Origin: a virus
Length of the DNA: 64,000 bases
Strand: one strand, 5' to 3'
UHGV virus genome: UHGV-0390448
Below, one piece after another: positions 11,223-39,397 of this stretch. A program made the translations under genes and the position numbers. Positions within the stretch are counted from its first letter, which is position 1. Each line of letters opens with the position of its first letter. The notes under the pieces are model-generated. The model did not search any database, was not told where the DNA came from, and saw nothing but the letters and a program-made list of their open reading frames with translations.

Positions 11223-11256
11223 TGTGTTAGAAAATCAAAATTGATTTTCTAACACA
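11223..11256. promoter_or_regulatory. 34-bp palindromic operator (gttagaa-N14-ttctaac) upstream of ref
   Basis: tgtgttagaaaatcaaaattgattttctaacaca, 16-bp perfect arms. Confidence 0.6.
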
Positions 11257-11296: not shown

Positions 11297-11452
11297 ATGA
11301 TGCTTGTCGCAATAAGTGCAATCCACCAGCAATCCGGTACAGAAATTGGGTTGCTATATGCCCTGTTTTTCACTGTCCTGGCGTTGTTTGAGCTGGGCAT
11401 TGAACTCTTTGCTCTCATCAACTTTTGCGTAACGTTCCTGGGGAAACTTTGA
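11297..11452 (+). CDS. Small hydrophobic protein (51 aa), translationally coupled to the next gene
   Basis: caggagg RBS; predicted MMLVAISAIHQQSGTEIGLLYALFFTVLALFELGIELFALINFCVTFLGKL; stop overlaps next ATG (tgATGg). Below the ORF-track size cutoff. Confidence 0.35.
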   Translation: MMLVAISAIHQQSGTEIGLLYALFFTVLALFELGIELFALINFCVTFLGKL

Positions 11453-12063
11453 TGGCTATACGCATTATGAAAATTTACATCGCGGGTCCGATGACTGGTT
11501 ATCCCGACTACAACCGCACAGCGTTTTTTTCGAAAGCAAAAGAGCTGATGGAGGCAGGGCATATTGTTCTGAATCCGGCGCTGTTACCTGCTGGCCTCTG
11601 CCAGAGCGAATATATGGATATTTGCCTTGCTATGGTGCGTTCGGCTAATGCGGTCTATTTGCTCAAGGGGTGGGAGGAATCAGTTGGCGCTCGTGCAGAG
11701 CACGAGCTGGCTCAAAAGCTGGGGCTGAATGTAATTTATGAGTCACCAACCAACATTGAATGCCAGGTTGCTCCGCATATTTACCGGGAACTGGTCAATG
11801 CACTGCGTGATATCGCTGCTGTATATCACGGCACAGAACAGCTTCGTGAGCGTTTAGCCCATACCATTTCCTATTACCTGTCTGCATCTCATGAGCACAA
11901 GCTCCGTCAGAAGGTAATGATCAAATTTATCATGAGGTTATCGAAATCCCTGGCAAACGCCGATCCAAAGAATCCATTACCGAAAGAGGCAATGAATTAC
12001 CTGAAGTCCTGCAACATTGTTTCTGAAGATGGCGTTCTTTTGGTTAGAAGGAGTTCTGCGTGA
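11452..12063 (+). CDS. DUF4406-like (nucleoside 2-deoxyribosyltransferase-like) protein
   Basis: MKIYIAGPMTGYPDYNRTAF N-terminal pattern; start chosen at the ATG coupled to the upstream small ORF (track ORF begins at 11425). Confidence 0.5.
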   Translation: MAIRIMKIYIAGPMTGYPDYNRTAFFSKAKELMEAGHIVLNPALLPAGLCQSEYMDICLAMVRSANAVYLLKGWEESVGARAEHELAQKLGLNVIYESPTNIECQVAPHIYRELVNALRDIAAVYHGTEQLRERLAHTISYYLSASHEHKLRQKVMIKFIMRLSKSLANADPKNPLPKEAMNYLKSCNIVSEDGVLLVRRSSA

Positions 12064-12377
12064 GCTGGCGGGGATGGGGAAGGGCAGAAATCATGATACT
12101 CCGCCAGTGCGCCGGGACTATGACAGTCGAGGGTATTGGGAGACTGATCGGGCGTACCGGTGGTGCTGTCAGGACTAAAGCGCGGCAATTGCGGATCAGC
12201 ATGATTCTGAAAGGTGACTTTCACCAGTCAGCCAAATACCGGCAGAGCGATATAGAGCTGGCGCGGCAGCTTCATCAGTGTGGCGTTCCCCGCCGTGAGA
12301 TCGCAGAAAAACTCGAAATGCCCCTGGGCATGATTAATCAGTACGTTTATTTCGAAAGGAGAGTGCATGAAGTCTGA
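12060..12377 (+). CDS. Hypothetical protein
   Basis: ORF in a plus-strand array with overlapping stop-start junctions. Confidence 0.45.
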   Translation: MSWRGWGRAEIMILRQCAGTMTVEGIGRLIGRTGGAVRTKARQLRISMILKGDFHQSAKYRQSDIELARQLHQCGVPRREIAEKLEMPLGMINQYVYFERRVHEV

Positions 12378-12870
12378 AGGTTTAACGCCCGCACAACTGG
12401 CAGAGCGTAACGCTGAGTATGTAACGGAAATTTCCCGACTTGAGAAAGAGCGCGCGGCGCTGGCGGCGGAGAATGCACTTGCTCGTAAAGCTGTTCAGGC
12501 ATTCTGTGATGTTGTTGGCGACAACACTGAGATTATCTCCGAGTTGGTTGGGCGAGATGGCGTTCTGGTTATTTTGGAGGCCATGAAAGTAACAGGAAAT
12601 ATGCCAGCCACCGACGCTTTCCTGGCTGAAATACGTGCGGAGGCACGCAACGAGGGGATTAACTACACCGCAAGCCGCCTTGCTGCCGCTTTCAACCACG
12701 GATTTATCAATAAGTCTTTACGTGAAGTTTTCGACGTTACACGCATGATTCTGTCAGCGAAAGAAGAGTTGGCTAATGAACTGCACCCAATTGATGGCCT
12801 GTCCGGTGAATATGCGGAGAAATCCCTTGAAGAATGGGCGGAACAGATTCGCAAAGGAGTTCAGTCATGA
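12367..12870 (+). CDS. Hypothetical protein with ERAALAAENA coiled-coil motif (Ea22/Ead-like)
   Basis: 167 aa; motif recurs in 13841-14548 and 18117-19251. Confidence 0.5.
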   Translation: MKSEGLTPAQLAERNAEYVTEISRLEKERAALAAENALARKAVQAFCDVVGDNTEIISELVGRDGVLVILEAMKVTGNMPATDAFLAEIRAEARNEGINYTASRLAAAFNHGFINKSLREVFDVTRMILSAKEELANELHPIDGLSGEYAEKSLEEWAEQIRKGVQS

Positions 12871-13100
12871 GCATCCGAACTGAACATGGATTTGGTCCGT
12901 CAACGGTCGAAGTCGAATGGCTTGATGATTGCCCTAAGTGCCAGCACGGCAAAGCCAAGGTAACAGGATGGTCGGTAACCAAAGATTCTTTGTGGGCGGG
13001 TGATGAGGCCGTCTGTTCCAAATGCGGTCACAAAGGTGAAATCGATGCTGATGGAGAGAATGCCTGGGTGGAATGGGACGAAATCGAGGAGGCACAATGA
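12867..13100 (+). CDS. Small zinc-ribbon protein
   Basis: Two Cys pairs (CPKC...CSKCGH); internal start MSIRTEH. Confidence 0.45.
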   Translation: MSIRTEHGFGPSTVEVEWLDDCPKCQHGKAKVTGWSVTKDSLWAGDEAVCSKCGHKGEIDADGENAWVEWDEIEEAQ

Positions 13101-13519
13101 GCAACATCGACATCGATACACTGGCGCTGCGTGAGGCGGCAGAAGCAATAAAAATAGCAGCCACACCACAAAAATTGCTGGCATTTCGTATGAAAGTCAC
13201 ACCTCAGGTTGTGCTGGCACTGCTGGATGAACGGGAAAGAAACCAGCAATACATCAAACGCCGTGACCAGGAGAACGAGGATATTGCGCTAACGGTAGGG
13301 AAGCTGCGCGTTGAGCTTGAAGCAGAAAAACAGCGGGCAAAGGTTCTATTTATGGAAAATGCTCGGCTTAAGTCAGGCATAGCCGGTCTGATACACCTCG
13401 GTATTCGATATGCAGATGTTGAGGTCATGAAAATTGCTGGAGATGCCCAGCTTTCTACCCCATGCACTGACAGCATCATAAACAGCATTGCAACAGGCAT
13501 TCGCATCAAAGGAGAGTGA
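13097..13519 (+). CDS. Hypothetical protein
   Basis: ORF; internal start MSNIDIDT. Confidence 0.45.
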
Positions 13520-13520
13520 G

Positions 13521-13844
13521 ATGACCACATCGCATTCTGCAATCACCCAGGAAAAAGTATTTCGCTTGCTCGAACGTCTGGAGGCGCTCGCCACGGAGGA
13601 GGATATATCCCCGGAGATGCTGGTCGAGTGCAGCCGTGTGATATTGCGTCGCAAGAACGACATCGCGCGGCTGACATCTGGCGCACCATCCGTATCAGCC
13701 AGTCCAACGCTTTATTGCAGCTTCTGCAACAAATCCCAGCACACCGTTAAAAAGTTAATTGCCGGGGACAACGTTTTCATCTGCAACGAGTGCGTGAAAG
13801 ATTGCAACAACATTATCCAGGAAGAGCAAAGGGAATCAGCATGA
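13521..13844 (+). CDS. Small protein with ClpX-type C4 zinc-finger-like C-terminus
   Basis: C-terminal [39 protein letters not shown] closely resembles the ClpX N-terminal zinc-binding domain; aggagag RBS. Confidence 0.55.
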
Positions 13845-14548
13845 AATTTTCCAAATTTTCTGAGTTGGTGAATCGTATTTTGTCCAACAACCACAGCCAT
13901 CGTCGCGATATGGATGTAACGATCGTTGTTCATTCGCCTGGCAGCATTGGTTCAACACCTTCAGTTGAGGTTCAGTCAATTCACGCTGGTTTTGATTGGG
14001 ATTCCGGGAAAGTGCTGATTTTCCCAGCACAGCCACTGACCACGCTAACACCAGAACAGATTACTGATATCACGGATAGTGTGCGCAAAGGTCAGTCTTG
14101 GCACGCATACCAGGAATACAAGAAGCATAAAGAGCAGTTGGAAAAATTGTCGATTGAACTGGATGCTGCAAGACGGCGCATTACAGAACTGGAGAGCGAA
14201 CGCGCGGTGCTGGCGGCGGAGAATGCGGAGCTGAAGTCTGTGCACCCTCAACCATTCGGAGCTGAGATGATGAAGGCTCTTGATGCGTATGAGAAGCATC
14301 AGGATGAAGTGCCAGAGACTGGAATGCTCAATGCATTTTTCATCTTGCGCGACAGCATCCGTGTTGAAACCCCAGCCACCGACTCTTTCCTGTCTGAAGT
14401 GCGGGCGCAGGGGGTGGAAATGTTTGCACAGAAATGTAACTCAAAATCCGCACAGTCGCTTGCATCTGATATACGCGATAACTGGAAACTACTCGGTGAA
14501 CATGCAACTGACTTTGCCGATGAGCTTCGAAGAGGAAGCAGCAAGTGA
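13841..14548 (+). CDS. Hypothetical protein with Ea22-like coiled coil
   Basis: [16 protein letters not shown] motif. Confidence 0.5.
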
Positions 14549-14820
14549 ATATCGACACGACAATAACGATCGATACGCTCCTAAATTCCGGTCTGGCACT
14601 TCTCGGTTGGCTTTACATCATGTCCCGTACATGGCGATGGCTGGGTTCCATTTTCCTGAAACAGTGGAAAAAACGGCGCAAACAGGAACTACGCCAGAAG
14701 GCATTAGAAGCGTTCTATGACGCATTTGAACTTGGCAGCATTGAACCAGGCACAACAGCGAGGATAGCGACAAAAGGCGACCTGATGATAGTGATGTTCA
14801 GACAGGAGAAAACAAAATGA
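14545..14820 (+). CDS. Hypothetical small protein, one TM segment
   Basis: ORF; hydrophobic stretch LALLGWLYIM. Confidence 0.4.
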   Translation: MNIDTTITIDTLLNSGLALLGWLYIMSRTWRWLGSIFLKQWKKRRKQELRQKALEAFYDAFELGSIEPGTTARIATKGDLMIVMFRQEKTK

Positions 14821-15041
14821 CAGAACAGACGATGACAAATCGCGAACTTGTTGATGCCGCGATTGAACTTGCTGGCGATTTTTATTCCATGATGGGTTAC
14901 GAGCATCGACCTGGTTTTAAGTATTGGGAGTCACCGCATCCCCAAGAACAACAGGTGTTTGAAATGGCCTGCCGTGCTTTTGAGGTTATTCGCGGTTCTG
15001 ATGTGATGGACGCCGTTGCCGACTTGGAGGATGAAGAGTGA
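14817..15041 (+). CDS. Hypothetical small protein
   Basis: ORF only. Confidence 0.4.
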   Translation: MTEQTMTNRELVDAAIELAGDFYSMMGYEHRPGFKYWESPHPQEQQVFEMACRAFEVIRGSDVMDAVADLEDEE

Positions 15042-15349
15042 GCATCATTGTAGAAATGCCGGTAGAACGTGATGAATATGGCTGCTGGACACATCCGGAG
15101 TATGAAAAGTTTTGTGCAGGGCGTGAATATATTTCAACGGAAGAATTTGACGCATGGTTGAAGGCAAATAATCTTCAGTGGACCATCCAAACTATGGATG
15201 AAGATGATTTTAATCTGGACGCAGATGGTCCCGATATTGCCGCCTGGGAACCGGAGCGACCAGAGGGCGAAGGCTGGTTTGTTGGCTCTATTCATGACAC
15301 TGAAGATGGTCCGGTTTGTGTCTGGCTGCGGGAGAAGGTTGCCGCATGA
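15038..15349 (+). CDS. Hypothetical small protein
   Basis: ORF only. Confidence 0.4.
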
Positions 15350-16032
15350 CCCAGGTGCTGCATGAAGTGAATTTATATAGCCGTATTGATGGTTCAGGCT
15401 ACAGAAACATATGGGTTGTTGGTGATTTGCACGGTTGCTACACCCTACTTATGAATGAACTCCATCGTGTGGATTTTGACCCTACACAGGATTTACTGAT
15501 ATCGGTTGGCGACCTTATCGATCGCGGCACCGAAAATGTTGAATGCCTGGAGCTATTGCAGATGCCCTGGTTTCGGTCGGTTATGGGAAACCACGAGCGA
15601 TTAATGATCGATGCGTTAAGTCCCGCAGGCAACGTGAATAACTGGCTAATGAATGGTGGTCAATGGTTCTTCATGCTGGACGCTGATCGGGAAATATTAG
15701 CCAGGGCGCTGGTGGAGCTGGTAAGACGTTTGCCCTATATCATTGAGTTGAACACCGGGCATGAAACTATCGTTATAGCCCATGCCGACTATCCTGATAA
15801 CGAATACCAGTTTGGTAAACCTGTTAGCGATCTCAATGTTACCTGGCGGCGTGAGCGATTTTATGACGCGGTTGATGGTGTTGGTGGAATGATCACTGGC
15901 GCAGATAGCTTTATTTTCGGGCATACGCCAGTAAACAGCCCGAAATCTTTCTGGAACCAGCACTACATAGACACTGGCGCGGTTTTTTGCGGAAATCTGA
16001 CGCTAAAGCAGGTGAAGGGAGGGCAGTTGTAA
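15346..16032 (+). CDS. Serine/threonine protein phosphatase (lambda-phosphatase-like metallophosphoesterase)
   Basis: GDLHGC, GDLIDRG and GNHE motifs; internal ATG start with gagaagg RBS. Confidence 0.7.
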
Positions 16033-16064: not shown

Positions 16065-16094
16065 TGTTAGAATATTGATTTTAATTTTCTAACA
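16065..16094. promoter_or_regulatory. Operator site gttagaa-N14-ttctaac
   Basis: tgttagaatattgattttaattttctaaca; about 45 bp upstream of gene 16137-17132. Confidence 0.55.
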
Positions 16095-18575: not shown

Positions 18576-19251
18576 TTACCAGGCACTGCGTGAGGCGGCA
18601 GTGAAAGCAACGTGGGGAGACTGGGACTCATATAAACCACACCGTGGCGCACGTGGTTATGAGGTCCGACTAAGTAGTCAGGCCATTGCGCAACACGTTC
18701 TGAAAAACAACGCTGAATTTATTGCTGCCTTTAATCCAAAGGTTGCTTTGGCACTACTGGATGAGATCAACGCATTAGAGGAAACGCGTATCAACGATGT
18801 TTGCCGTATTGCGGAACTAACAAAACAACTGGAGTCGGCAAAATCAAAACTCAACGAGCAGCGCGAGCTTTACGAGGGAGTAATCGCGGATGGAGGTAAG
18901 CGCATAGCAGAACTGGAAAAACAATGCGCTGAATCGGAGCGAAAAGCATTAAGCAACTTTGAAGAGTGTGCTGCGATGGCTGAACGTATCGAAGAGTTGG
19001 AGCAGGCCAACACAAGACAGGACGCCAATATAAACCACCAGCAGGAGGGCGTGACTCAATCAGTCACCCGATACATATATCACTACAACGCAGTGAATGG
19101 TTCTGACTCTATGTCTGGAATTGCGCGGTTAAGTTTCATGATCAAATCACAATCTGACCTTGAAGAACTTAAAAGCGCGCTTAGGAATATTGGTGGTTTC
19201 CGTGCGAAAGCAATTAACTCTCTTTCATATCTTGGATGTGAGGAAGAATAG
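18562..19251 (+). CDS. Ead/Ea22-like protein, paralog B
   Basis: MSEINYQALREAAVKATW N-terminus. Confidence 0.5.
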   Translation: MSEINYQALREAAVKATWGDWDSYKPHRGARGYEVRLSSQAIAQHVLKNNAEFIAAFNPKVALALLDEINALEETRINDVCRIAELTKQLESAKSKLNEQRELYEGVIADGGKRIAELEKQCAESERKALSNFEECAAMAERIEELEQANTRQDANINHQQEGVTQSVTRYIYHYNAVNGSDSMSGIARLSFMIKSQSDLEELKSALRNIGGFRAKAINSLSYLGCEEE

Positions 19252-19257
19252 CAAACG

Positions 19258-19791
19258 ATGAAAAAAGGATTTAAAGATAATTTCGGTGCAGCGCAAAACA
19301 CTGGAGAAATCATTGACGCATTTAATGGGGAGGAAATGCCCACTTTATTCAGAAAAGAATATCCGCGAAAGAGTAGAGCAATAGAATTGCTGTTTATCAT
19401 TCTGTTTTTCGTGTTGCTGATACCAATAGCCTCAATATTAGTGACTGTTCTAATGGGAAGAGTATTTGAACCGTTAGTTGAACTGTATATCGATATAGTG
19501 TGGACCCCATTCAGGAAGCTACACAATAAAATTAACCCACATAAGGAAACAGATATGGCAACTTTGACAAAAGAAGATCGTTTTACCAAAAAACAAATCG
19601 CCGAGGCAAAAATCCTCGATAACAACGGAACCTACTTCATCAACGGTTCTATTCTTCCTGTTTATATCAATGAGGATGGAGACACTTACCTTATTGAAGA
19701 GTACGAAAAAGGCGAGCCGAGCGAACACCTCATTAAAGATTTGTTCGCGGATGGCGTTATTGTTGCGGTTAATCCAATCGGATACAACTGA
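19258..19791 (+). CDS. Hypothetical membrane protein
   Basis: TM segment LLFIILFFVLLIPIASILVTVLMG. Confidence 0.45.
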   Translation: MKKGFKDNFGAAQNTGEIIDAFNGEEMPTLFRKEYPRKSRAIELLFIILFFVLLIPIASILVTVLMGRVFEPLVELYIDIVWTPFRKLHNKINPHKETDMATLTKEDRFTKKQIAEAKILDNNGTYFINGSILPVYINEDGDTYLIEEYEKGEPSEHLIKDLFADGVIVAVNPIGYN

Positions 19792-19801
19792 GGCATAATT
19801 T

Positions 19802-20182
19802 ATGACCACTTTAACCGACAAAGAACTGATTAAAGAAATCAAAGAGCGCATAGGCAGTCTGGACGTGCGAGACGATATTGAGCGCCGTGCTTATGAAATT
19901 GCTCTGGCATCACTGGAAGCAGAGCCGGTGGCGTGGCTTCATTCAGACAATGGCTTAGGTATTCCGGCAATAACGAGGAGTAAAAACATTGCTGACAGTT
20001 GGTTATCAAAGGGTTGGTATGTTCAGCCGCTATATATAGCCAAGCCAGTGCCAGTTGTACCGGAAGAAAAACCAATGCCTAACCCTCTTAGCAGGTACGC
20101 GGTTGATGCTGTTGCCGCTATTGCAGAGGTGAGAGGCTGGAACGCCTGTCGTGCCGCCATGCTTCATGGTAAAGGAGAGTGA
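19802..20182 (+). CDS. Hypothetical protein
   Basis: ORF only. Confidence 0.45.
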   Translation: MTTLTDKELIKEIKERIGSLDVRDDIERRAYEIALASLEAEPVAWLHSDNGLGIPAITRSKNIADSWLSKGWYVQPLYIAKPVPVVPEEKPMPNPLSRYAVDAVAAIAEVRGWNACRAAMLHGKGE

Positions 20183-20183
20183 T

Positions 20184-20393
20184 ATGGCTATTGCCGCAAG
20201 TTACACCATGCATCTCTATTGTGACTGCCGCCAGTGTACGGAAGGTGTATATCCAGTGCCAGACTTCGGTGAGTATATCGGTACGTCATGGTCTGGCTGT
20301 GCAAAAGAGGCACGTAAGGATGGCTGGCGAATAAGCAAAGACAAAACACGTGCTTTTGCGCCAGGGCATAAAGTTTTAAGGATTAACAAATGA
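20184..20393 (+). CDS. Hypothetical small Cys-rich protein
   Basis: Internal ATG with aaaggagag RBS; CDCRQC motif. Confidence 0.45.
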   Translation: MAIAASYTMHLYCDCRQCTEGVYPVPDFGEYIGTSWSGCAKEARKDGWRISKDKTRAFAPGHKVLRINK

Positions 20394-21328
20394 CCACTAT
20401 TACCAAAGAGTTCACCAAAGAGCAGTTGATTGAGCAGGCTAAGAAGAATATTGAGGTTCTTCGAGTTGCGGTGGAAAGAGTCCCAGGCGCTTATGATGCG
20501 GCGGTTATTCATCTCAAGCTGGCTGAAATTACGCTGGCATCGCTGGAAGCAGAGCCTGTTCTGTATCAGTCCTGCACACGCCCCACCTGGAATAGCGGAG
20601 TTCCGTGGACGGAATGGAAAGAACGTAGTCGTGAGGGCTACGAAGACGATTTGCGCTTTACAGACACGCCTGACCATGCCGGTTGGATAAACAAATGTCG
20701 AAAACTATATACCACTCCGCCAGCACCGATAGCGTTAGAGGCCATTGAAAACGCAATTGAATATATCCGCAGTATCGCTTTTCACATCGATGAAGACGAT
20801 TACCACGGCAAGCATATTGCGTATTTCATGCGACAAGCACTGGTCTGGCTGGAAGGGCATTCATGCAGCAACGACAGACAGGGTAAAGCCGAGAATCAAC
20901 CAGTACGCGGCAACCAGACTGCCGAATCCAATCGCGGTAATGAGTGGACCGGCAATCCTGATATTGATAACGCCATCATCATGCTCGATCGCATAGATAC
21001 GCTGGAAAGTTGCGATGATGACCGTATTGAGGCGGTTAAGGCTGTTTTGCGTAGACTGGCTGGCAACTATCCGGTAACTCCGGATGGTTGGATAAGCTGT
21101 AGTGAGCGAATGCCAGAAATGGGAGAGCGACAATGCTATGTGTTAGCAGCTGACTTTAAAAACAACTACCCACCAAACATCCCCAACACTCAGGTCGGCG
21201 TATATGGCGACTGGTTTAATGATGGCAATCCCACTTGGGATGACGGTGATGGCGAAGACCTGTATCTCAAAGAGGTAACCCACTGGATGCGGCTACCGGA
21301 ACCGCCGCAGGAGGTTAACCGTGGCTAA
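20390..21328 (+). CDS. Phage protein with C-terminal DUF551-like domain
   Basis: C-terminal VTHWMRLPEPP pattern. Confidence 0.5.
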   Translation: MTTITKEFTKEQLIEQAKKNIEVLRVAVERVPGAYDAAVIHLKLAEITLASLEAEPVLYQSCTRPTWNSGVPWTEWKERSREGYEDDLRFTDTPDHAGWINKCRKLYTTPPAPIALEAIENAIEYIRSIAFHIDEDDYHGKHIAYFMRQALVWLEGHSCSNDRQGKAENQPVRGNQTAESNRGNEWTGNPDIDNAIIMLDRIDTLESCDDDRIEAVKAVLRRLAGNYPVTPDGWISCSERMPEMGERQCYVLAADFKNNYPPNIPNTQVGVYGDWFNDGNPTWDDGDGEDLYLKEVTHWMRLPEPPQEVNRG

Positions 21329-21504
21329 CCTGCAACTTATCCTCAAAGGTGAAAAGATTTGAGGATTCGCATCATTAATAACACCGACAAGCATCCGGAA
21401 GATTATTTGGATTGCTCGTTAGCAGAGCGCGTGGAATTGATATAAGAAAATCTCCGCACATCGGCAACACACAGCTAAATATGTTCGCAATAAAGGGTAA
21501 ATCA

Positions 21505-21906
21505 ATGGCTAAATTTCGGAGAACTATTATTTTTCTGGCAATGTTATCTGCCTGCCATTTATCACATGCATCGGTTATTGTTGCAACCGCCGCAACAACG
21601 GCAGCAATTAGCGCCTCAGCCGCAAGCGAGCAGGAGCAACGCACTGCAATCAATGCATCCGCAAATACTACCACTGTAGCAGTCACGCAAGATAAGCCAA
21701 ATATAGGCTTTGTTACTTGCGGAAAACGGTATGGAGAGACGGTCGGTTCTCTTGGTTGCGCAGTGTGGCATGACGAACGAGCAGAAATTCCGTGGAAATC
21801 ATGGCCTGGTTACATTCTTGGCGAAAAGATACCCACCAGCTATGAAGTAAATGCTATTTCGTTCGATCAATATAACAGAGTCGCAACGGTCTACTTTTCT
21901 TATTAA
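21505..21906 (+). CDS. Secreted protein with signal peptide
   Basis: MAKFRRTIIFLAMLSACHLSHA; aaggg RBS; track ORF begins earlier at 21412. Confidence 0.5.
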   Translation: MAKFRRTIIFLAMLSACHLSHASVIVATAATTAAISASAASEQEQRTAINASANTTTVAVTQDKPNIGFVTCGKRYGETVGSLGCAVWHDERAEIPWKSWPGYILGEKIPTSYEVNAISFDQYNRVATVYFSY

Positions 21907-21912
21907 CACGGA

Positions 21913-22212
21913 GTGATTATGTGGCGCGGTAATAATCATGGCAGAAGCCATATGATACTTACCGAATATAAGCTAGACCACAAAACCAATAAATCACGCT
22001 CAGTATATTTGCTTCGGCACAATAGCCGCGTAAGGAATACCGTGCTGGAGCAAAATCTGACCGTTGAAATGGATAATTTCGGGAATTTCAGGCCAACAAT
22101 ATCGCTTGATGATTTCCCACGTGGTTTAAGCGAAAGAGAAGCAATGCTGAAATTAGCAGAATGGCTACAAAGATTGAGTATTGTTATTGAAGATAACTGG
22201 AGTCAACCATAA
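21913..22212 (+). CDS. Hypothetical protein
   Basis: ORF only. Confidence 0.4.
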   Translation: MIMWRGNNHGRSHMILTEYKLDHKTNKSRSVYLLRHNSRVRNTVLEQNLTVEMDNFGNFRPTISLDDFPRGLSEREAMLKLAEWLQRLSIVIEDNWSQP

Positions 22213-22388
22213 TGAAAAACAGAAAGAAATTTTGGATTACTTTTTTGTTTGTATGCCTTTGTGGTTTATTTATTTTATTAGCTGGTGGTGTTAAATGGGG
22301 TACGGTGGGGTGTGGTTTTTGGAGCGGGGTTACTCTTTTCGCAGCCTGGCTTATTGCCAACTTTGAGTCAGGCGGAGGGTATTGGTAA
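22212..22388 (+). CDS. Small membrane protein (58 aa), candidate
   Basis: ATG overlaps upstream stop (taATG); two hydrophobic segments. Below the ORF-track cutoff. Confidence 0.3.
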   Translation: MKNRKKFWITFLFVCLCGLFILLAGGVKWGTVGCGFWSGVTLFAAWLIANFESGGGYW

Positions 22389-22408
22389 GTGGTCTTATTC
22401 CCCACTTC

Positions 22409-22460
22409 ATAACGGATATCACTCTCGTGATAACGGATATTCCAATTTTGATAACGGATA
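22409..22460. repeat. Three direct repeats of ATAACGGATA at 21-bp phasing
   Basis: Copies at about 22409, 22430 and 22451, just upstream of the ATG at 22468. Confidence 0.55.
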
Positions 22461-22467
22461 AGGCCAA

Positions 22468-22677
22468 ATGAAGCATTTTTTAAGACTGGCATTTGTTCTG
22501 GCGCTATTTGCTCCTCCGGCTGCAATGGCTGGAGAACAGCAACATTGCACAAAAGAGAATGAACACCCTTTCATCGTTATTCAATGTGATGACGGAACGG
22601 TGACAGTAGTTAATGTAAGGGATAAACGTGCAGCCGTATGCCGTAAAGGCGAACCATGCAAGGAAATAAAACTATGA
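22468..22677 (+). CDS. Small secreted Cys-containing protein
   Basis: MKHFLRLAFVLALFAPPAAMA signal peptide; 69 aa. Confidence 0.5.
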   Translation: MKHFLRLAFVLALFAPPAAMAGEQQHCTKENEHPFIVIQCDDGTVTVVNVRDKRAAVCRKGEPCKEIKL

Positions 22678-23471
22678 CTAAAATCACTAAATTTCGCATA
22701 TCAGAGATTATTGCACGCATCGAAATGTATGGACACGGCGCTGGATACACGGCAGATGAGGTATTGGAGCTTGCCCAAATAGCGTTAGCAACCTGCAAAG
22801 ACGGTGAGAGTATAAAGCTGATTGACTTGTTGGTGCTGGAGCTGCCAAAGCGTGGAGGGTGGCCTGATGATGTGCTCGATTGTCGCATGGTTAGAGAGGA
22901 CTGCTGTGAACCATCATATGGTTTCTTTGCTTTTGGCTCTGATCCAGCGAAAAGCCCGCGTGGGCGCAATTTTTGCCTTGAGGTCAGGCTTCCGATAAGT
23001 AACCTTGATCGCGAGGAATACACGGAAATAATTTCGCGCAAACAATACGAAGAGGCTCTTGAAGCATCCAATAAGTTAAATTTTGAGCAATGGCTGGGGC
23101 AACAACGCGAAAAAATCGACCTGGACTGCGGTTGTGTGTCTACTGAAACATTCATGCACTGGCTGCGAGTAGCCTATGAATCTGGCAACCGTCTGGATAC
23201 TCATCCACAAGAGGTGCCGAAGCCAAGAGTAAGCACAACTCTGGAAAGGAGCTATCTTGAAACTGCATTAAAGATTAAGGCAGGCCATACGCTAGGCGTC
23301 ATTGATGCCATGTTGGTTCATGAAATGGCGAAGGCTTTACTACCAGAAATTCCCGCGAATACGCCTACGCAAGTTCTGGCGCTAATGAACCAACACAATC
23401 TGCCCAGGGAAGCATTCTGGTGCTTTGACCATGAACAGTGGAGATACTCATGCTATGAATGCCGGTATTAA
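22674..23471 (+). CDS. Hypothetical protein
   Basis: ORF; internal start MTKITKF with aggaaa RBS. Confidence 0.5.
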   Translation: MTKITKFRISEIIARIEMYGHGAGYTADEVLELAQIALATCKDGESIKLIDLLVLELPKRGGWPDDVLDCRMVREDCCEPSYGFFAFGSDPAKSPRGRNFCLEVRLPISNLDREEYTEIISRKQYEEALEASNKLNFEQWLGQQREKIDLDCGCVSTETFMHWLRVAYESGNRLDTHPQEVPKPRVSTTLERSYLETALKIKAGHTLGVIDAMLVHEMAKALLPEIPANTPTQVLALMNQHNLPREAFWCFDHEQWRYSCYECRY

Positions 23472-23527
23472 TGATGACTGGTGAGCTTGTAGTTCTGGCT
23501 ACCCGCAGTACCCCTGGTTACTACAAA

Positions 23528-23878
23528 TCATTGTAGTGGGTGGCATTTAACGAAATCGATCACCCTATCCTGAACTTCAGAAAGAAGGGCTTTTTCACGC
23601 GCCAGGACGTCAGGATATTGACGTTCTGGCCTTACCAGATGCCGGAGCTTCCCATTAAGCAGAATGGCCTCAGAAAACACTTTTACGCTGTGCTTTATCC
23701 CCTCTGTTTCACTTTTCAGCGTCAAAATAAAGCGCAATTGCTTATTAGCCTGATTCAGATTCAATACACGAATTTGCAGTTCGTCTATGCTGTTTCGCAA
23801 TGGGATTGATGCCACCACACTGGTGCAGTCTCTGATTGTCTGAATTGAACGGCTAACATTGAGAACGTTATTGTGCAT
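23528..23878 (-). CDS. Hypothetical protein
   Basis: ORF only; lone minus-strand gene in a plus-strand block. Confidence 0.35.
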   Translation of the reverse strand: MHNNVLNVSRSIQTIRDCTSVVASIPLRNSIDELQIRVLNLNQANKQLRFILTLKSETEGIKHSVKVFSEAILLNGKLRHLVRPERQYPDVLAREKALLSEVQDRVIDFVKCHPLQ

Positions 23879-23910
23879 GTGCCTGATCCACTAACTCCTG
23901 GAGGTTTCTT

Positions 23911-24162
23911 GTGTCAGATCGAAATATAGCAGCTAAAAGCCAGGAAGAGCGAGACAAGGTGAACGTAGACCTTGCCGCCAGCGGCGTTGCTTACAAAGAA
24001 CGGCTGAATATACCTGTGATTGCAGAGCAGGTGGCCCGTGAGCAACCGGAAAACCTGCGCGCATATTTCATGGAACGGCTACGGCACTACCGGCAGTTAA
24101 GCCTCCAGTTGCCAAAAGGGAGCGATCCGGTGTATCAGAACGAGGATGCACCAAAAAAATAA
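23911..24162 (+). CDS. Hypothetical protein, GTG start
   Basis: ggagg RBS before the GTG. Confidence 0.4.
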
Positions 24163-24187
24163 CGGCAAGATGGGGGAGACATTAAAC

Positions 24188-24538
24188 ATGCTTAACTATC
24201 ACGACAACACGCGTTCTATGCAGACAATCCGCACCAATACAGCGGTGGTTGATAGCTTTCCTGTACATACCCAAGGCCGTGAAGATACCGTGGAAGTGCG
24301 ACGCATGTTGTGTCGCCGGTCACCAGGCCACCAGCACTTCATCGTAACGTTTAAAAGCGATGTAGAGCGCGCCGAAAAAATCTCTAACTCCACATCTCTG
24401 GTTAAGCCGTTGGCGGAGGTTATTGTGCGCAACAATAAGGCGCGCTTTGTCCTTGAGGAGCATCATTCTGATTTTAATGAAAAAATCGAGTCAAGCATTT
24501 TGCAATATATGAATGGCACGTTCACGCCACCAATGTGA
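24188..24538 (+). CDS. Hypothetical protein
   Basis: Internal ATG with gggggaga RBS. Confidence 0.45.
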   Translation: MLNYHDNTRSMQTIRTNTAVVDSFPVHTQGREDTVEVRRMLCRRSPGHQHFIVTFKSDVERAEKISNSTSLVKPLAEVIVRNNKARFVLEEHHSDFNEKIESSILQYMNGTFTPPM

Positions 24539-24637
24539 TTAGCCCCCAGCGTGGCGCGCGTACAAACCCCGCTTTCACAAACTATGCCTTTTCAATGTAT
24601 ACTGTATGAATAAACAGTATTATTGAGGTAAAACGCT

Positions 24638-25027
24638 ATGGGCTTCCCTTCTCCTGCGGCGGATTATGCAGAGAGCCGTATTTCTCTTGATCAGCAACTA
24701 ATCAGACATCCTTCAGCAACCTACTTCATGCGGGCGGCAGACAGCCATCACCGTGAGGGAATATTGCAGGGTGCTTTGCTGGTGGTTGATTCCTCACTTA
24801 CTCCGGTTGATGGTTCACTGCTTATATGCGCTATGGAGGGGGAATATCGCGTAAAAAGATACCGGAAGTATCCGCGCCAGCACCTGGAGGATTTAAGAAC
24901 CGGGAAGAAAGAGGCGTTACCAGTAGATGACGATGGATACACGGGCAGTAATGCTGTTTTTGGTGTGATCACTCATGTCATCAATGATGCCCGAAGTGGG
25001 GAATTTGATGATTGTCCGGTGATTTAA
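24638..25027 (+). CDS. humD: HumD, UmuD-prime-like SOS mutagenesis protein
   Basis: GFPSPAADYAE...HPSATYF UmuD-family pattern; sits immediately before phd-doc as in P1. Confidence 0.7.
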   Translation: MGFPSPAADYAESRISLDQQLIRHPSATYFMRAADSHHREGILQGALLVVDSSLTPVDGSLLICAMEGEYRVKRYRKYPRQHLEDLRTGKKEALPVDDDGYTGSNAVFGVITHVINDARSGEFDDCPVI

Positions 25028-25099
25028 GCTGCAAAGTGCTGGTGCTTTATGCCTGTGAAGTTTATAGTTGTGTACACATAACGAGTACACGAGGTGTTT

Positions 25100-25321
25100 A
25101 TGCAATCCATTAACTTCCGTACCGCGCGCGGCAACCTTTCTGAAGTGCTCAACAATGTTGAAGCCGGGGAAGAGGTTGAAATCACCCGCAGAGGCCGTGA
25201 GCCAGCAGTAATTGTCAACAAGGCTACTTTTGAAGCCTACAAAAAAGCGGCGCTGGATGCCGAATTTGCATCCCTGTTTGACACTCTGGACTCCACCAAC
25301 AAGGAACTGGTTAACCGATAA
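25100..25321 (+). CDS. phd: Phd antitoxin (prevent-host-death)
   Basis: [39 protein letters not shown] is essentially the P1 Phd sequence as I recall it. Confidence 0.85.
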
Positions 25322-25701
25322 TGAGGCATATATCACCGGAAGAACTTATTGCGCTTCATGATGCGAATATAAACCGCTACGGCGGCCTGCCGGGAATGTC
25401 AGATCCGGGTAGGGCAGAGGCCATTATCGGGAGAGTTCAGGCCAGAGTTGCCTACGAAGAGATCACCGACCTTTTCGAAGTCTCCGCCACCTACCTGGTG
25501 GCTACTGCGAGAGGGCATATATTCAATGATGCCAATAAGCGTACCGCGCTAAACAGTGCGCTGCTATTTCTACGCCGTAACGGTATACAGGTATATGATT
25601 CTCCCGTGCTGGTGGAACTTGCGGTTGGGGCTGCAACTGGTGAAATCCCCGTATCTTCAGTAGCGGAGAAACTACGTGAACTATATGGTTCCAATATTTG
25701 A
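25321..25701 (+). CDS. doc: Doc toxin (death-on-curing, Fic-fold kinase)
   Basis: [48 protein letters not shown] matches P1 Doc. Confidence 0.85.
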
Positions 25702-25734
25702 AAAGAAGCCCGCTCAACCAGGCGGGCTTCCTAC
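25701..25734. terminator. Hairpin between convergent doc and 25737-26843
   Basis: gaagcccgc-tcaaccag-gcgggcttc; T-run on the minus-strand side. Confidence 0.5.
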
Positions 25735-25736
25735 TA

Positions 25737-26843
25737 TCACTCAATGATTTTTTCTGCTGTCAGCCAGCTAATTTCTTGCCTGTCTTTCGGCGGTTTTAGC
25801 ATGTGGGCGTATTCAGCGACATTCTCCCACGGAATTGTTTTTGCCCACTCAACGATAGCATTGTGATCTGCAGTGAAGAGTGGAATGGTGTGCGATTTCA
25901 ACCACTCTAATGTTGTAACGCCATGTTTTTTTGCGTGGTGCTGTGCATGATGCCGGGCTATCACTTGTAATGGCATTGTCCATTCACTACCATCAGGCAT
26001 CGAAAAGCGCATTGTTTTCGGCATATCTGATTCAAGAACAGCCTCCCGAATACCCGGGAACTCACCAAGAACCATGCGACGGTAATCATCGCCGATTTTA
26101 CCACCATACATTTCTGCAATCCCATCAAGATAATCTTGAGTAAGCAGAGGTGATTCTTCTGCGTTCAGCTTGATGGCTGTATAAATACCACATGGATTTT
26201 CTTCAGTTTTTGCACGACCATGATGGGAATCGTAAAAGTGTCCATGTTCCTCCTCTGGAGGAGCGGACATTAAAAGTATACGTGAATCGTCACTCACTAA
26301 AGATGCTCTTAACATCCCGAATAGCCGATAGCTTACAAGAGCCGCGTCCATAACAATGATCAAAAGATGTTCAGCATAATATCCGGCTACATCTTCCTCA
26401 TAATTTAGGCGATATGGTTTAATTTCGCAGCCCCAAGATTTTTGGTAACGATGATTGAGGCCATTTTGGTCGATTTGAAAATACTCTCCCAGTAATGGCG
26501 CTTTTGTATTAGCTTTCTCCCAATACATATTCATGAGTGAGAGAGTTACCATTCCATTACGCTCAAAGTCTGGAGCGACCATGACCGTTTTAGACTCAGG
26601 CATCAGGATCGTATAAAGGATACAAATGATAGCCAGAGCAGACTTATGTCCTATCCCAGTCGGTGTGGTAACGCTGACTGCTGAACCTTTTTGTTGAATC
26701 GCTTCAACAATTAATTTTTGCTGGTGGGTTAACTTAACCCCCATCAACTCTTCTGCTGCTAATGCCCAGTCATGGCTATATTTGCTTACCAGCTCTCTCC
26801 ACTCTGGTAATTCGGTGATGTTTTTAGGCGTCAGCATCAGCAT
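25737..26843 (-). CDS. Terminase-large-subunit-like ATPase paralog with degenerate Walker motifs
   Basis: Aligns by eye to PacB-like 32192-33700: TGIGHKSALAI vs SGHGTGKSSLTA; HLLIIVMDAA vs HLLLILDEAS; HFYDSHHGRAKTEENP vs YFYESHHSRAKAEGNP. Only 368 aa. Confidence 0.6.
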   Translation of the reverse strand: MLMLTPKNITELPEWRELVSKYSHDWALAAEELMGVKLTHQQKLIVEAIQQKGSAVSVTTPTGIGHKSALAIICILYTILMPESKTVMVAPDFERNGMVTLSLMNMYWEKANTKAPLLGEYFQIDQNGLNHRYQKSWGCEIKPYRLNYEEDVAGYYAEHLLIIVMDAALVSYRLFGMLRASLVSDDSRILLMSAPPEEEHGHFYDSHHGRAKTEENPCGIYTAIKLNAEESPLLTQDYLDGIAEMYGGKIGDDYRRMVLGEFPGIREAVLESDMPKTMRFSMPDGSEWTMPLQVIARHHAQHHAKKHGVTTLEWLKSHTIPLFTADHNAIVEWAKTIPWENVAEYAHMLKPPKDRQEISWLTAEKIIE

Positions 26844-35530: not shown

Positions 35531-35558
35531 TATTAGAAAATTAATATTAACTTACTAA
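35531..35558. promoter_or_regulatory. Degenerate operator site attagaa-N14-tactaac
   Basis: Same 7-14-7 spacing; upstream of 35061-35453. Confidence 0.4.
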
Positions 35559-35560
35559 CA

Positions 35561-36970: not shown

Positions 36971-37046
36971 TGGTGGCCCCTACCGGACTTGAACCGGTGA
37001 CCGTGCGATTATGAGTCGCCCGCTCTAACCACTGAGCTAAAGGGCC
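36971..37046 (-). tRNA. tRNA with CAU anticodon, most similar to tRNA-Ile2 (lysidine type); Met not excluded
   Basis: Reverse complement GGCCCTTTAGCTCAGTGGTTAGAGCGGGCGACTCATAATCGC...GGTTCAAGTCCGGTAGGGGCCACCA resembles E. coli ileX; CCA encoded. Confidence 0.8.
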
Positions 37047-37063
37047 AGATTACTGTTAATTAC

Positions 37064-37192
37064 GCTTACGCTTTTTGCCAGAACCGCGTAAGGCTTTTGC
37101 CGCTTGCTCTACCCCGTATGCAACCACCAGCAGAAACAATAATGTCCACTCCGGGTTTTTATCGGCAAACGCCCAAAAATCCATCACTTGCA
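37064..37192 (-). CDS. Small membrane peptide (about 42 aa) inside the tRNA operon, candidate
   Basis: aaggtgg RBS 7 nt before ATG; predicted MDFWAFADKNPEWTLLFLLVVAYGVEQAAKALRGSGKKRKRN. Below the ORF-track cutoff. Confidence 0.4.
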
Positions 37193-37474
37193 GCCACCTT
37201 TTAAGACAAACGCCATTGCTGTTAGGTTGCGGTGCCGGGTGCCTCCCGGTGACGTTAACCAGTTAACAATTAACGCCGGATCACTTATGGATTCTCGTTA
37301 CGCCAGTAAAAAGACCACCTTTACTGTTTTAACTGTTCCGCGTGCGCTTAGCCGCATTCACCGCAATGGTAAGAGCATTTGGCTGACTGGGCGGCGATGA
37401 CGCCTGTACGCATTTGGTGATCCGGTTCTGCTTCCGGCATTCGCTTAATTAGCCAAATACTCTTAACGTTGCGA

Positions 37475-37561
37475 TGGCGGAGAGTAATGGAATCGAACCA
37501 TCATCGCTTGGGCGACGGGACGGTTTTCAAGACCGCTTGAGCACCATGCTCCCTACTCTCC
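37475..37561 (-). tRNA. Atypical type-II tRNA, Ser-like (UGA anticodon)
   Basis: Anticodon arm GCGGT-CTTGAAA-ACCGT as in E. coli serT, long variable arm, T-loop TTCGATT, CCA encoded; D-arm non-canonical. Confidence 0.5.
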
Positions 37562-37719
37562 AGTGATTGTGGTGGTCGGTGCTGATCTCCGACTGCGCCT
37601 CTTTTTTTCATAGCCCATAAGGCCGGTCAGTGCGCTTGATGACTGAGGCATCGATATTTACTACGCCGCCTCGTTGCCATAGGGCGGACTTGCGCGCCAG
37701 CAACGCGCATTCACCACAA

Positions 37720-37793
37720 CGGTAAGGGTACTTCGTAGGGATTCGAACCCTCTGCCAAGCACGGCGATCTCCGACGTCGCAAAATACCCTTAC
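37720..37793 (-). other. tRNA-like fragment: perfect T-arm inside a 10-bp inverted repeat, no acceptor pairing or CCA
   Basis: GGTAAGGGTA...AGGG-TTCGAAT-CCCT...TACCCTTACC on the minus strand; cannot be folded into a canonical cloverleaf. Confidence 0.3.
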
Positions 37794-37802
37794 CTGTTGT
37801 GT

Positions 37803-37878
37803 TGGTGCCGGTTAACGGACTCGAACCGCTGACATCCTGCTTACAAGGCAGGCGCTCTACCAACTGAGCTAAACCGGC
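37803..37878 (-). tRNA. tRNA-Thr (UGU)
   Basis: GCCGGTTTAGCTCAGTTGGTAGAGCGCCTGCCTTGTAAGCAGG...GGTTCGAGTCCGTTAACCGGCACCA; canonical cloverleaf. Confidence 0.85.
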
Positions 37879-37882
37879 AATT

Positions 37883-37969
37883 TGGTGGGGAGTGATGGAG
37901 TCGAACCATCCGAGTCGCAATGACAGTAGATTTACAGTCTACCCCGCTACCCCTACGGACTAACTCCCC
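37883..37969 (-). tRNA. Type-II tRNA, Tyr-like (GUA anticodon), atypical D-arm
   Basis: Anticodon arm GTAGA-CTGTAAA-TCTAC, long variable arm, T-arm GATGG-TTCGACT-CCATC, CCA encoded. Confidence 0.55.
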
Positions 37970-37974
37970 TAAAT

Positions 37975-38051
37975 TGGCGATGGTGGGTGGATTCGAACCA
38001 CCGACCGACAGCTTAGAAGGCTGCTGCTCTATCCTACTGAGCTACACCATC
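37975..38051 (-). tRNA. tRNA-Arg (UCU)
   Basis: GATGGTGTAGCTCAGTAGGATAGAGCAGCAGCCTTCTAAGCTG...GGTTCGAATCCACCCACCATCGCCA; resembles E. coli argU. Confidence 0.8.
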
Positions 38052-39366
38052 ACTTGCCGGGTACGTCTCCGGCGAGGGCTTCCACCTCCGTATGCTTTTC
38101 GGCGCACCGCGCCCTGGCTGCAATTCGGTAACAGGGGATACACAACCCTGGCTTCCAGCGTGATTAGCGCCTTCAGCATGACGGGATATACCCGTTACAA
38201 GACATTATTCCAGAAAGCCATTAACCAATGGCTGTTACGCGGGAAGGACGTAACAGGTAAGGGCGCTGACCAGAAAGACCTGACCCTTCTCATTCATCTG
38301 GTTAATCACACCGGCGCCCTTGCCTGTTATGCCTCCCCGTTCCCTAATACACAGACGGGGACACTCTGCGGTCGATTTTTTGACGGGGGACGACTCATAC
38401 CCCGTGGCGTCAGGCTTCTTAGGCCGCTACCATCATCAGATCATCGTTTGCATTTACTTTAATGGTCGGGTTCTAAACCGCCGCAAAGTCGCTAACCATG
38501 ACGAAAACACTGAAAAAACACCCACCCGAAGGTGGGCAAATATCCCACTCGCGGTATTGCCACTTAGGCGTATGGTCAACCTGGCAACTCGGTGTCCTCA
38601 ACGGGGAAGGAATAACCCCGCCATACTTACCGCCGCGCCTGTCGCGGTTATCGCTACGTATCAACATAAAAGCCGACTGCCTGAGCAAGATTCACTTTCA
38701 AAGGCCCGCAGAAAGGAATCCATAGTCGGCTTTTATCTTGAAGCGGCTCTCTCTCCGCCCGTCACCGTCCTATCCCGGTTGTCGCGTTTGCCACGCCAGC
38801 CGTAACGAGGTTTAAAGTCTTTTCACGTTTTCATCACTCGACTGCCGTCTATGGCTGTTCGTTGCAGCGGGGGTGCCTCCCCCTGGGGATATCCCCGGCC
38901 TTACCCCCATTCTTTCAAAACACAATGCAAGGCCACATCCGCATAGGTGCATTACCGCAACGTTAAGGAGACTCAGAGTCAGCAAAATAAGAGGAAAACC
39001 CAACTCTGCGCCTCCTTAACGTTGAGGATGTGCACTGATGATGACCCGATGCAGCCTGGCCCACTTAACATACTCACTGCCAGATCATCATCAATGAACA
39101 CCTTAAAAAGACCTTCCGTGGCTCAAGTCACTGTCGTTTACTCCGTAAAATGCTCTCGCTGAAACCACTTTACGCACTAAACCTGCCGGGCATGTATTTG
39201 CACGGTGCCGGAGCTTTCCCTTACCTTAAAATTTACTTTCTAACACTTAAGTTTGTTTGATGCTGGTGGGGGAAGACAATGAAGTGACTATCAAACCCGC
39301 AAGCGACATGGGAAGCTCCCCACCAGCACGAAAAATTCTATGTTAAGTTAATTCCATAATCAACAT
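38052..39366 (-). other. About 1.3-kb ORF-free, inverted-repeat-rich region between the tRNA cluster and an operator site; candidate transcribed leader or structured ncRNA
   Basis: Only short, overlapping, low-complexity ORFs in all frames; long-range inverted repeats, e.g. acgttaaggag/ctccttaacgt (about 38959-39022), tgatgatga/tcatcatca (about 39036-39095), aaaagccgact/agtcggctttt (about 38670-38733). Confidence 0.25.
39238..39244. promoter_or_regulatory. ttctaac half-site
   Basis: tttactttctaacacttaag. Confidence 0.3.
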
Positions 39367-39394
39367 GTTAGAAAGATAATTTTAGTTTTCTAAC
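39367..39394. promoter_or_regulatory. Operator site gttagaa-N14-ttctaac
   Basis: atgttagaaagataattttagttttctaacac; between the 3' end of 39398-40606 and the ORF-free region; positioned to control minus-strand transcription into the tRNA cluster. Confidence 0.55.
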
Positions 39395-39397
39395 ACA

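Follow-up and report, generated by a model that had tools for sequence, protein, structure and literature searches.

A gene of a D6-like phage-plasmid of Escherichia coli encodes a small protein that carries a true homologue of ClpX's N-terminal C4-type zinc-binding domain (ZBD), with a likeness far beyond chance, and that has no AAA+ motor. Most plausibly, the protein would interfere with ClpX-dependent protein degradation, and the best-supported reading, tentative at a probability of about 40%, is that it would mimic the ClpX N-domain competitively; we infer both the effect on proteolysis and each of the binding partners. Throughout the text, the window means the whole stretch of DNA that was analysed (64,000 nucleotides).

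The protein has the docking domain of ClpX and lacks the AAA+ module

The earlier note on this DNA had described a small phage protein whose C-terminal part resembles the N-terminal C4 zinc finger of ClpX. The small open reading frame lies precisely at 13521-13844 on the plus strand, the peptide quoted in the note is found verbatim as residues 64-102, and the phage provenance was likewise confirmed, the sequence being that of a D6-like E. coli phage-plasmid. The likeness to ClpX was also borne out, with Pfam, alignment and predicted structure all in agreement: when the alignment to the ClpX N-domain that had been proposed as a check was run, 28 of 39 residues (72%) were identical to E. coli ClpX. 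The Pfam family PF06689 (zf-C4_ClpX) matched residues 65-101 with an E value of 9.8e-18 and 64.2 bits, against a cut-off of 27, over positions 2-39 of the 39 in the profile. Among solved structures, the best matches by sequence were the ZBD entries of E. coli ClpX (1ovx and 2ds5, E ~1e-15), followed by Pseudomonas-type ClpX, with Listeria and Neisseria ClpX at far lower scores. The four Cys ligands (C66, C69, C88 and C91) show the ClpX spacing CxxC-(18)-CxxC, are invariant in 23 of 23 aligned sequences and are equivalent to C15, C18, C37 and C40 of ClpX in the numbering of PMC8808172.

AlphaFold2 modelled the 107-residue protein with a mean pLDDT of 82. In this model, the β-hairpin and helix of the ZBD span residues 64-106, with strands at 79-81 and 86-88 and a helix at 89-106, so that the predicted fold is a treble clef made of a β-hairpin and a C-terminal helix. 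The modelled ZBD superimposed on 2ds8, 2ds5 and 2ds6 at 0.6 Å over 38 columns, with TM scores of 0.83-0.91 when normalised to the target. Similarly, the best Foldseek matches were 2ds8, 2ds5, 2ds6, 2ds7 and 1ovx, with rmsd values of 0.5-1.6 Å (0.5-0.6 Å for the four 2ds entries). The phage ZBD would presumably bind zinc and dimerise. For the NCBIfam ClpX equivalogs, the scores were 47.5 bits (TIGR00382, cut-off 359) and 43.6 bits (NF003745, cut-off 371), with an alignment over profile positions 5-50 only, and the AAA+ module (Walker A/B, pore loops and IGF loop) is absent from the 107 residues. The protein has the docking domain yet is not a ClpX, and without the AAA+ module it is itself unable to unfold or degrade.

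The domain assignment is already public and is not new at the annotation level. RefSeq holds a 100% identical protein (WP_021551796.1) under the name 'ClpX C4-type zinc finger protein', and the full length matched PHROG 6797 (E 1e-56), whose label is "function unknown". In GenBank, phage D6 orf93, P88 gp19 and other copies go by the wrong name of "carboxylate--amine ligase", a label that many E. coli and Salmonella homologues carry and that received no support in any of the domain searches run. A literature search returned no characterised stand-alone phage ZBD protein and no protein inhibitor of ClpX.

An orphan helical hairpin precedes the zinc-binding domain

According to the AlphaFold2 model, the protein is built of two parts, a helical hairpin and, after a linker, the ZBD. 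The coordinates of these and of the other features are listed in Table 1.

Table 1. Position, strand and source of the features described in the text (window coordinates)
Feature	Position	Strand	Source
Two-domain protein CDS, 107 codons, stop included	13521..13844	+	ORF list and sequence
Shine-Dalgarno-like AGGAG, 6 nt 5' of the ATG	13510..13514	+	Read from the sequence
Orphan N-terminal helical hairpin, residues 8-53	13542..13679	+	AlphaFold2 block with pLDDT 79-91; conservation with P88
Flexible linker (predicted), residues 54-63	13680..13709	+	Low pLDDT (59 for residues 51-60)
ClpX-type C4 zinc-binding domain (ZBD), residues 64-102	13710..13826	+	Pfam, NCBIfam, structure matches, alignment
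Cys ligand codons of the ZBD	13716-18, 13725-27, 13782-84, 13791-93	+	Sequence
Accessory operon holding the ZBD gene, co-directional and tightly packed	11297..16032	+	ORFs, Pfam, RefSeq and D6 annotation
Perfect inverted pair of TGTTAGAAAATCAA with a 2-bp spacer, ref/operon intergenic region	11225..11254	.	Sequence

The hairpin is a conserved domain that makes up half of the 107-residue protein and was not covered in the earlier note. Its helices are predicted at residues 10-26 and 31-52, and the pattern ERLEALAxEE ... LRR(K/E)xD is common to the D6-type and P88-type subfamilies. A search of 1.84 billion representative proteins with a hairpin profile retrieved only its own family with its truncated copies and, besides these, P0041 and P0047, two proteins that are repetitive and look unrelated; we suspect that the repeated FSILKRIEASAT unit of P0047 is a translated CRISPR array. 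Foldseek searches against the PDB and BFVD gave no match to the hairpin. The hairpin is an orphan domain, and no function could be borrowed for it from other proteins, since neither the profile search nor Foldseek gave an outside relative. In helix 2, the invariant LRR(K/E)xD (residues 42-47, window 13644-13661) is loosely like ClpX-binding peptides such as LRVVK, the XB motif of SspB, and RRKKAI, the tail of MuA; this likeness may be coincidence, since the stretch is predicted to be helical and internal.

The N-terminal part of the gene varies among copies. In rare variants (P0022 and P0024), Ea22-like coiled-coil N-termini stand in place of the hairpin and are joined in the linker before LYCSFC; in these variants with a different N-terminus, the linker doubles as the recombination junction. 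In addition, many copies of the gene (clusters of 98 and 57 member sequences) begin with MKSEGLTPAQLAERNAEL, which is the N-terminus (window 12367-12420) of the Ea22-like gene found at 12367 and is fused in frame to the hairpin at ...RITQEKA, as in proteins P0001, P0008 and P0017 and loci L020, L021 and L023. The 5' end of the ZBD gene is reshuffled by recombination among Ea22-region genes, in a mosaicism that is typical of the region.

The gene belongs to a tightly packed operon behind a putative operator

The stop of the upstream Ea22-like gene ends at 13519, which leaves 1 nt before the ATG, and the next gene starts at 13841, within a 4-bp ATGA overlap with the stop of the ZBD gene. This spacing is that of a translationally coupled operon and indicates that the gene is probably coupled to its neighbours. 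The operon begins with a small ORF, a DUF4406 gene, an HTH-like gene, an Ea22-like gene, a zinc-ribbon ORF and a second Ea22-like gene, and continues after the ZBD gene with a 235-aa ORF, a DUF4752 gene, two small ORFs and a metallophosphoesterase gene (P1 ppp-like). The zinc-ribbon ORF between the two Ea22-like genes (12867-13100, plus strand, 77 aa) has two CxxC pairs (CPKC...CSKC) and a rubredoxin-like match that stays below threshold; it encodes a second small zinc-ribbon protein of the operon. PADLOC, run with PADLOC-DB, assigned no family to the ZBD protein or to seven operon neighbours, and a role as a component of a defence system was discarded on this result.

The inverted pair of TGTTAGAAAATCAA upstream of the operon is a putative repressor operator that would overlap a weak promoter-like TTGATT-17-GATACT. 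In the window, the TGTTAGAAAATCAA motif occurs at 18 sites with up to 3 mismatches, against 8.25 expected, and 6 sites have at most 1 mismatch. Copies of the 14-bp motif TGTTAGAAAATYAA are scattered over the element. They are often paired in inverted orientation before operons, with 2 bp between the two halves (11225-11254, 16065-16094, 35531-35560 and 39366-39395), and others stand singly (10594, 29692, 31089, 40627, 51586 and 52789). Phage D6 has the motif conserved at the equivalent sites, including the one between ref and the operon. Identity with the C1 operator of P1 was ruled out, as its consensus ATTGCTCTAATAAATTT is absent from the window and a different scattered motif is present; the 14-bp motif looks like the equivalent, in the D6 type, of the C1 operators that are dispersed in P1. 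If it is the element's own repressor operator, the operon would be silent in the plasmid prophage and switched on at infection or induction. Expression of the ZBD gene is probably early or lytic, with the motif suggesting repressor control.

Other parts of the window were also annotated. A Peptidase_S24 (UmuD/HumD-like) gene at 24638-25027 is followed by a Phd/YefM antitoxin gene (25094-25321) and a Doc (Fic/DOC) toxin gene (25321-25701). The closest complete plasmid, NZ_CP085065.1, is near-identical to the window; it carries a type I HsdRMS system at 20007-26278, whereas the corresponding segment of the window (18893-25024) holds ~6 kb of Ea22-like, DUF4014, DUF551 and other ORFs. By this comparison, the segment appears to be a swappable accessory or defence slot. 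A link to type I restriction was dropped, because HsdRMS lies on NZ_CP085065.1 yet is absent from the window. Five tRNA genes (Met-CAT, Ser-TGA, Thr-TGT, Tyr-GTA and Arg-TCT) are located on the minus strand at 36971-38051, and a related plasmid has a different set (Ile/Ser/Thr/Asn); the Met-CAT tRNA is possibly a lysidine-modified tRNA-Ile2, since it is labelled Ile in the related plasmid.

The family is restricted to temperate phages of Escherichia, Salmonella and Shigella and is old

The gene was 100% identical in a dozen complete E. coli plasmids of 90-95 kb and was carried by 109 of 5426 complete E. coli genomes, in 104 of which it was plasmid-borne. Homologues of 105-121 aa came only from Escherichia and Salmonella and, in addition, from Shigella plasmids, and formed two subfamilies, D6-type and P88-type, that are 50% identical overall. 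A scan of species-representative genomes gave just two ZBD matches, both alphaproteobacterial. Three unrelated temperate-phage backbones carry the family, namely D6-like phage-plasmids, ~108-kb phage-plasmids such as PhiR41_1, in which the gene sits among Ea22/EaA genes with a UmuD-like gene nearby, and P2-like prophages (P88 and relatives), in which the order is gpA-ParM-StbB, ZBD gene, Ea22-like gene and portal gene. No conserved partner gene was found in these contexts, as the downstream gene differs among the D6-like, P88 and P2-like ones. The presence on three unrelated backbones with no constant neighbour suggests that the protein acts on something common to the hosts. As a separate observation, the genes directly upstream of the P88-type ZBD gene encode a ParM/StbA actin-like segregation ATPase and an StbB-like partner (L003 3593-4868; L007 6439-7714), and such genes between gpA and portal are unusual for an integrating P2-like phage.

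When aligned by codons, the ZBD was 63% identical to E. coli clpX and the same codon was used in 13 of the 28 identical residues. These values rule out a recent capture from the host clpX, and the low nucleotide identity points to an old capture and an independent lineage. We propose an ancient capture from a proteobacterial clpX that was fused behind the orphan hairpin. The amino-acid identity of 72-79% in spite of scrambled codons suggests that the likeness has been kept by selection and does not reflect recency. With a single exception, the pairwise dN/dS values of both domains were below 1, and most lay in the range 0.1-0.6; by this measure, the gene appears to be under purifying selection. 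The constraint has its limits: within the family, the ZBD is 79% identical to that of ClpX in P88, where AGPSVYIC and CVDLCN are retained, and as little as 49% in P0021. The divergent members P0019, P0021 and P0039 are 49-59% identical to the ClpX ZBD, one of them with Gly at the I47 position, and three copies (P0042, P0043 and P0045) are truncated or frameshifted.

The docking surface is partly kept and partly remodelled

For the comparison of the docking surface, the number of a phage residue equals that of the full-length ClpX residue plus 51. F17 and I47 of full-length ClpX (F16 and I46 in the older numbering) form a hydrophobic pocket for lambda O and trigger factor, in a region that also binds SspB and RssB (PMC7804408). 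The ClpX substitutions L12S, L13A, L13D and H23A impair binding of the MqsA degron and A30S is neutral; H23 is important for the SspB tail as well (PMC8808172). In the phage protein, L13 and F17 are present as L64 and F68, both invariant in all aligned ZBDs, and I47 as I98, a position that is I, V or L in most of the family and Gly in one member. H23 is present as H74 (His, Tyr or Thr in the family). Among the altered positions, L12 is replaced by T63 and is variable in the family, and L43, which is retained in the E. coli and Pseudomonas-type ClpX sequences compared, is replaced by D94, at a site where family members have D, A, V or L. P32 is replaced by D83, with Asp or Glu in the D6 type, which turns the AGP motif of ClpX into AGD or AGE. 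Overall, the phage ZBD shares with the E. coli N-domain the fold, the zinc site, 28 of 39 residues and L13, F17, H23 and I47, and differs from it in substitutions that include L12 to Thr, G19 to Asn, P32 to Asp, Y35 to Phe and L43 to Asp, in its C-terminal location behind an orphan hairpin and in having no AAA+ motor. A docking surface that seems part kept and part remodelled is compatible with a decoy of altered specificity, and is no proof of one.

Discussion

As a competitive mimic of the ClpX N-domain, the protein would be produced when the repressor of the phage-plasmid is lifted, at infection or induction, and would form a zinc-bound dimer, as the ClpX N-domain does. The dimer would bind the peptides that tether those adaptors and substrates which depend on the N-domain (SspB, RssB, UmuD and lambda-O-like, MqsA-like or Phd-like proteins) and would compete with the three N-domain dimers of each ClpX hexamer, so that N-domain-dependent degradation by ClpXP would be selectively slowed. 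Direct pore recognition of ssrA and LAA tags would be unaffected. The benefit would lie in sparing labile phage or plasmid proteins, or antitoxins whose decay would trigger growth arrest, and the hairpin might add a second oligomerisation or specificity surface. ClpXP clients that are key to temperate phages and plasmids include lambda O, MuA, the Mu repressor, P1 Phd, UmuD' (a known ClpXP client), sigma-S and FtsZ; further clients are HsdR of type I restriction enzymes and the antitoxins of toxin-antitoxin and toxin-antitoxin-chaperone (TAC) defences. SspB, RssB, lambda O, UmuD', MuA, FtsZ and MqsA all dock on the ClpX ZBD, and the N-domain is dispensable for ssrA-tagged substrates and needed for lambda O, MuA, UmuD', FtsZ, MqsA and the adaptors SspB and RssB (PMC7226468; PMC7804408; PMC8808172), from which it follows that a free copy should spare N-domain-dependent clients selectively. 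Indeed, the isolated ClpX ZBD supplied in trans inhibits the RssB-mediated breakdown of sigma-S by ClpXP in vitro (PMC7226468, Fig. 1d). The titration of ClpX adaptors or substrates that the earlier note had suggested accords with this published biochemistry. This inhibition took a ~10- to 30-fold excess of ZBD over ClpXP (PMC7226468), which implies that a decoy must be abundant or bind more tightly than ClpX does.

The competitive mimic is favoured by true ZBD homology and fold in a protein with no AAA+ module, by the retention of the binding residues L13, F17, I47 and H23, by an amino-acid likeness that selection seems to have held (dN/dS below 1 in nearly all comparisons) and by the maintenance of the family in three unrelated temperate-phage backbones without a constant neighbour. 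It is also favoured by the likely ClpXP clients in the same window, Phd/Doc and the S24 UmuD/HumD-like protein, and by the precedent of the phage inhibitors of host AAA+ proteases PinA, gp4.5 and RexB. P1 Phd is given as a ClpXP substrate in a reference cited in PMC10286901, and the Phd and S24 proteins of the window might profit from a protein that mimics the ClpX N-domain. Against this reading stand the changes of L12 to Thr (ClpX L12S impairs binding of the MqsA degron), L43 to Asp and P32 to Asp or Glu, the low identity of the divergent members P0019, P0021 and P0039, the large excess of ZBD that competition took in vitro and the conserved N-terminal hairpin, which a pure decoy model leaves unexplained. 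The ZBD also occurs in unrelated architectures, for example cyanobacterial sigma factors, which indicates that the domain can serve roles independent of ClpX. Such a role here, with the zinc module reused as a small dimerisation, protein-binding or nucleic-acid-binding unit of an early accessory protein (a regulator or an Ea22-type interactor, for example) and the ClpX likeness reflecting ancestry only, appears somewhat doubtful. It would fit with the presence of PF06689 in proteins of different build, sigma factors for example, and in four or more further families of small phage proteins (phrog_12435, 5259, 20296 and 4681; BFVD matches), with the drift of family ZBDs to 49% identity with ClpX and with the constant location of the gene among Ea22/Ead-like mosaic genes. 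However, the ZBD is 72-79% identical to that of E. coli ClpX despite saturated synonymous sites, a closeness that we estimate to be about that of the ClpX orthologues of distant bacteria; moreover, the partner-binding residues L13, F17 and I47 are retained and the Pfam search detected no DNA-binding family.

The phage ZBD might alternatively pair with a ClpX N-domain, and not with itself, and place the hairpin on the ClpX ring, either as a phage adaptor for the degradation or remodelling of a chosen target or as a poison subunit that disturbs the trimer of dimers. The ZBD is a constitutive dimerisation domain (PMC7226468) whose core hydrophobic positions are conserved in the phage protein, its C-terminal location leaves the hairpin free, and a conserved second domain is what an adaptor would need. 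Such heterodimers are nevertheless unlikely, given that neither a cargo candidate nor a conserved neighbour was found and that a hairpin which binds a specific cargo is hard to square with the rare variants, where an Ea22-like coiled coil has taken its place. It is very improbable that the protein and the product of the overlapping downstream gene (13841-14548) form a two-gene toxin-antitoxin pair in which the ZBD protein would be the antitoxin, even though the two genes overlap by 4 bp and the PHROG 'antitoxin' family phrog_4681 has a similar layout. In the test for a type II antitoxin, that family matched at a non-significant E of 0.1 with no stretch above threshold and no conserved adjacent toxin gene was found, and PADLOC gave no match for either protein of the pair. 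A conserved partner or toxin gene downstream was ruled out by neighbours that vary between the D6-like, P88 and P2-like contexts, and this lack of a conserved partner speaks against such a pair. Finally, a functionless remnant of the 5' end of a captured clpX is already disfavoured and hardly credible: the surrounding region is highly mosaic, with many pseudogenes and recombinant Ea22 genes, and the truncated or frameshifted copies P0042, P0043 and P0045 exist, but the frame is intact, with a ribosome-binding site and apparent coupling to its neighbours, none of the four Cys varies, nearly every comparison gives a dN/dS below 1 in both domains, the non-ClpX N-terminal domain is conserved and the gene persists on three phage backbones and in 109 of the 5426 complete E. 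coli genomes.

Small phage proteins that act on host proteases have been described. T4 PinA and T7 gp4.5 inhibit Lon, and lambda RexB inhibits the ClpP-dependent degradation of lambda O, Phd and MazE (PMC10286901). No sequence relationship to the ZBD protein was detected for any of them, and the analogy that we propose is functional, in that a small protein of a phage would keep a host protease from labile proteins or antitoxins. PinA and gp4.5 act on Lon and RexB acts by a membrane-linked route, whereas the phage ZBD would act by mimicry of a docking domain. The E. coli anti-adaptors IraD, IraM and IraP block delivery of sigma-S by RssB to ClpXP without inhibiting the enzyme, and IraD and the ZBD share the docking site on RssB (PMC7226468). 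The Ira proteins have folds unrelated to the ZBD and bind only the adaptor RssB; in contrast, a copy of the ZBD could in principle bind every ligand of the N-domain. Other phage proteins also carry a stand-alone ZBD with no motor, including phrog_12435 ('protease'), phrog_5259, phrog_20296, a 65-aa 'Clp protease' of Pseudomonas phage PP9W2 and an ORF of Caulobacter phage Cr30; these are separate families and do not have the hairpin of the Escherichia/Salmonella family. To our knowledge, phage inhibitors are known for Lon, and no phage-encoded inhibitor has been defined for ClpX. Inhibitors of the ClpP pathway borne by phages are a subject of explicit speculation in the CmdTAC study.

New in this analysis are the build of the protein from two domains, one of them an orphan hairpin, its narrow distribution among phages and the lack of a partner gene, together with how old the capture is and how selection acts on it, the comparison with the mapped ClpX binding sites residue by residue and the likely repressor-controlled early expression. 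If it works independently of ClpX, the protein would merely be another small accessory protein of the Ea22 mosaic region. A bolder proposal, which we regard as distinctly doubtful, is that it would be the first virus-encoded inhibitor that copies the substrate-docking domain of a host protease: made early, a free N-domain mimic would soak up adaptors and degrons, stabilise antitoxins (Phd, MqsA-like) and phage proteins and thereby disarm toxin-antitoxin or abortive-infection defences that are triggered by proteases. As a competitive mimic of the ClpX N-domain, the phage ZBD would offer a selective block of N-domain-dependent degradation only, and this natural, motor-less copy of a docking domain, apparently maintained by selection, could be used as a reagent to ask which ClpXP clients the phage wants spared.
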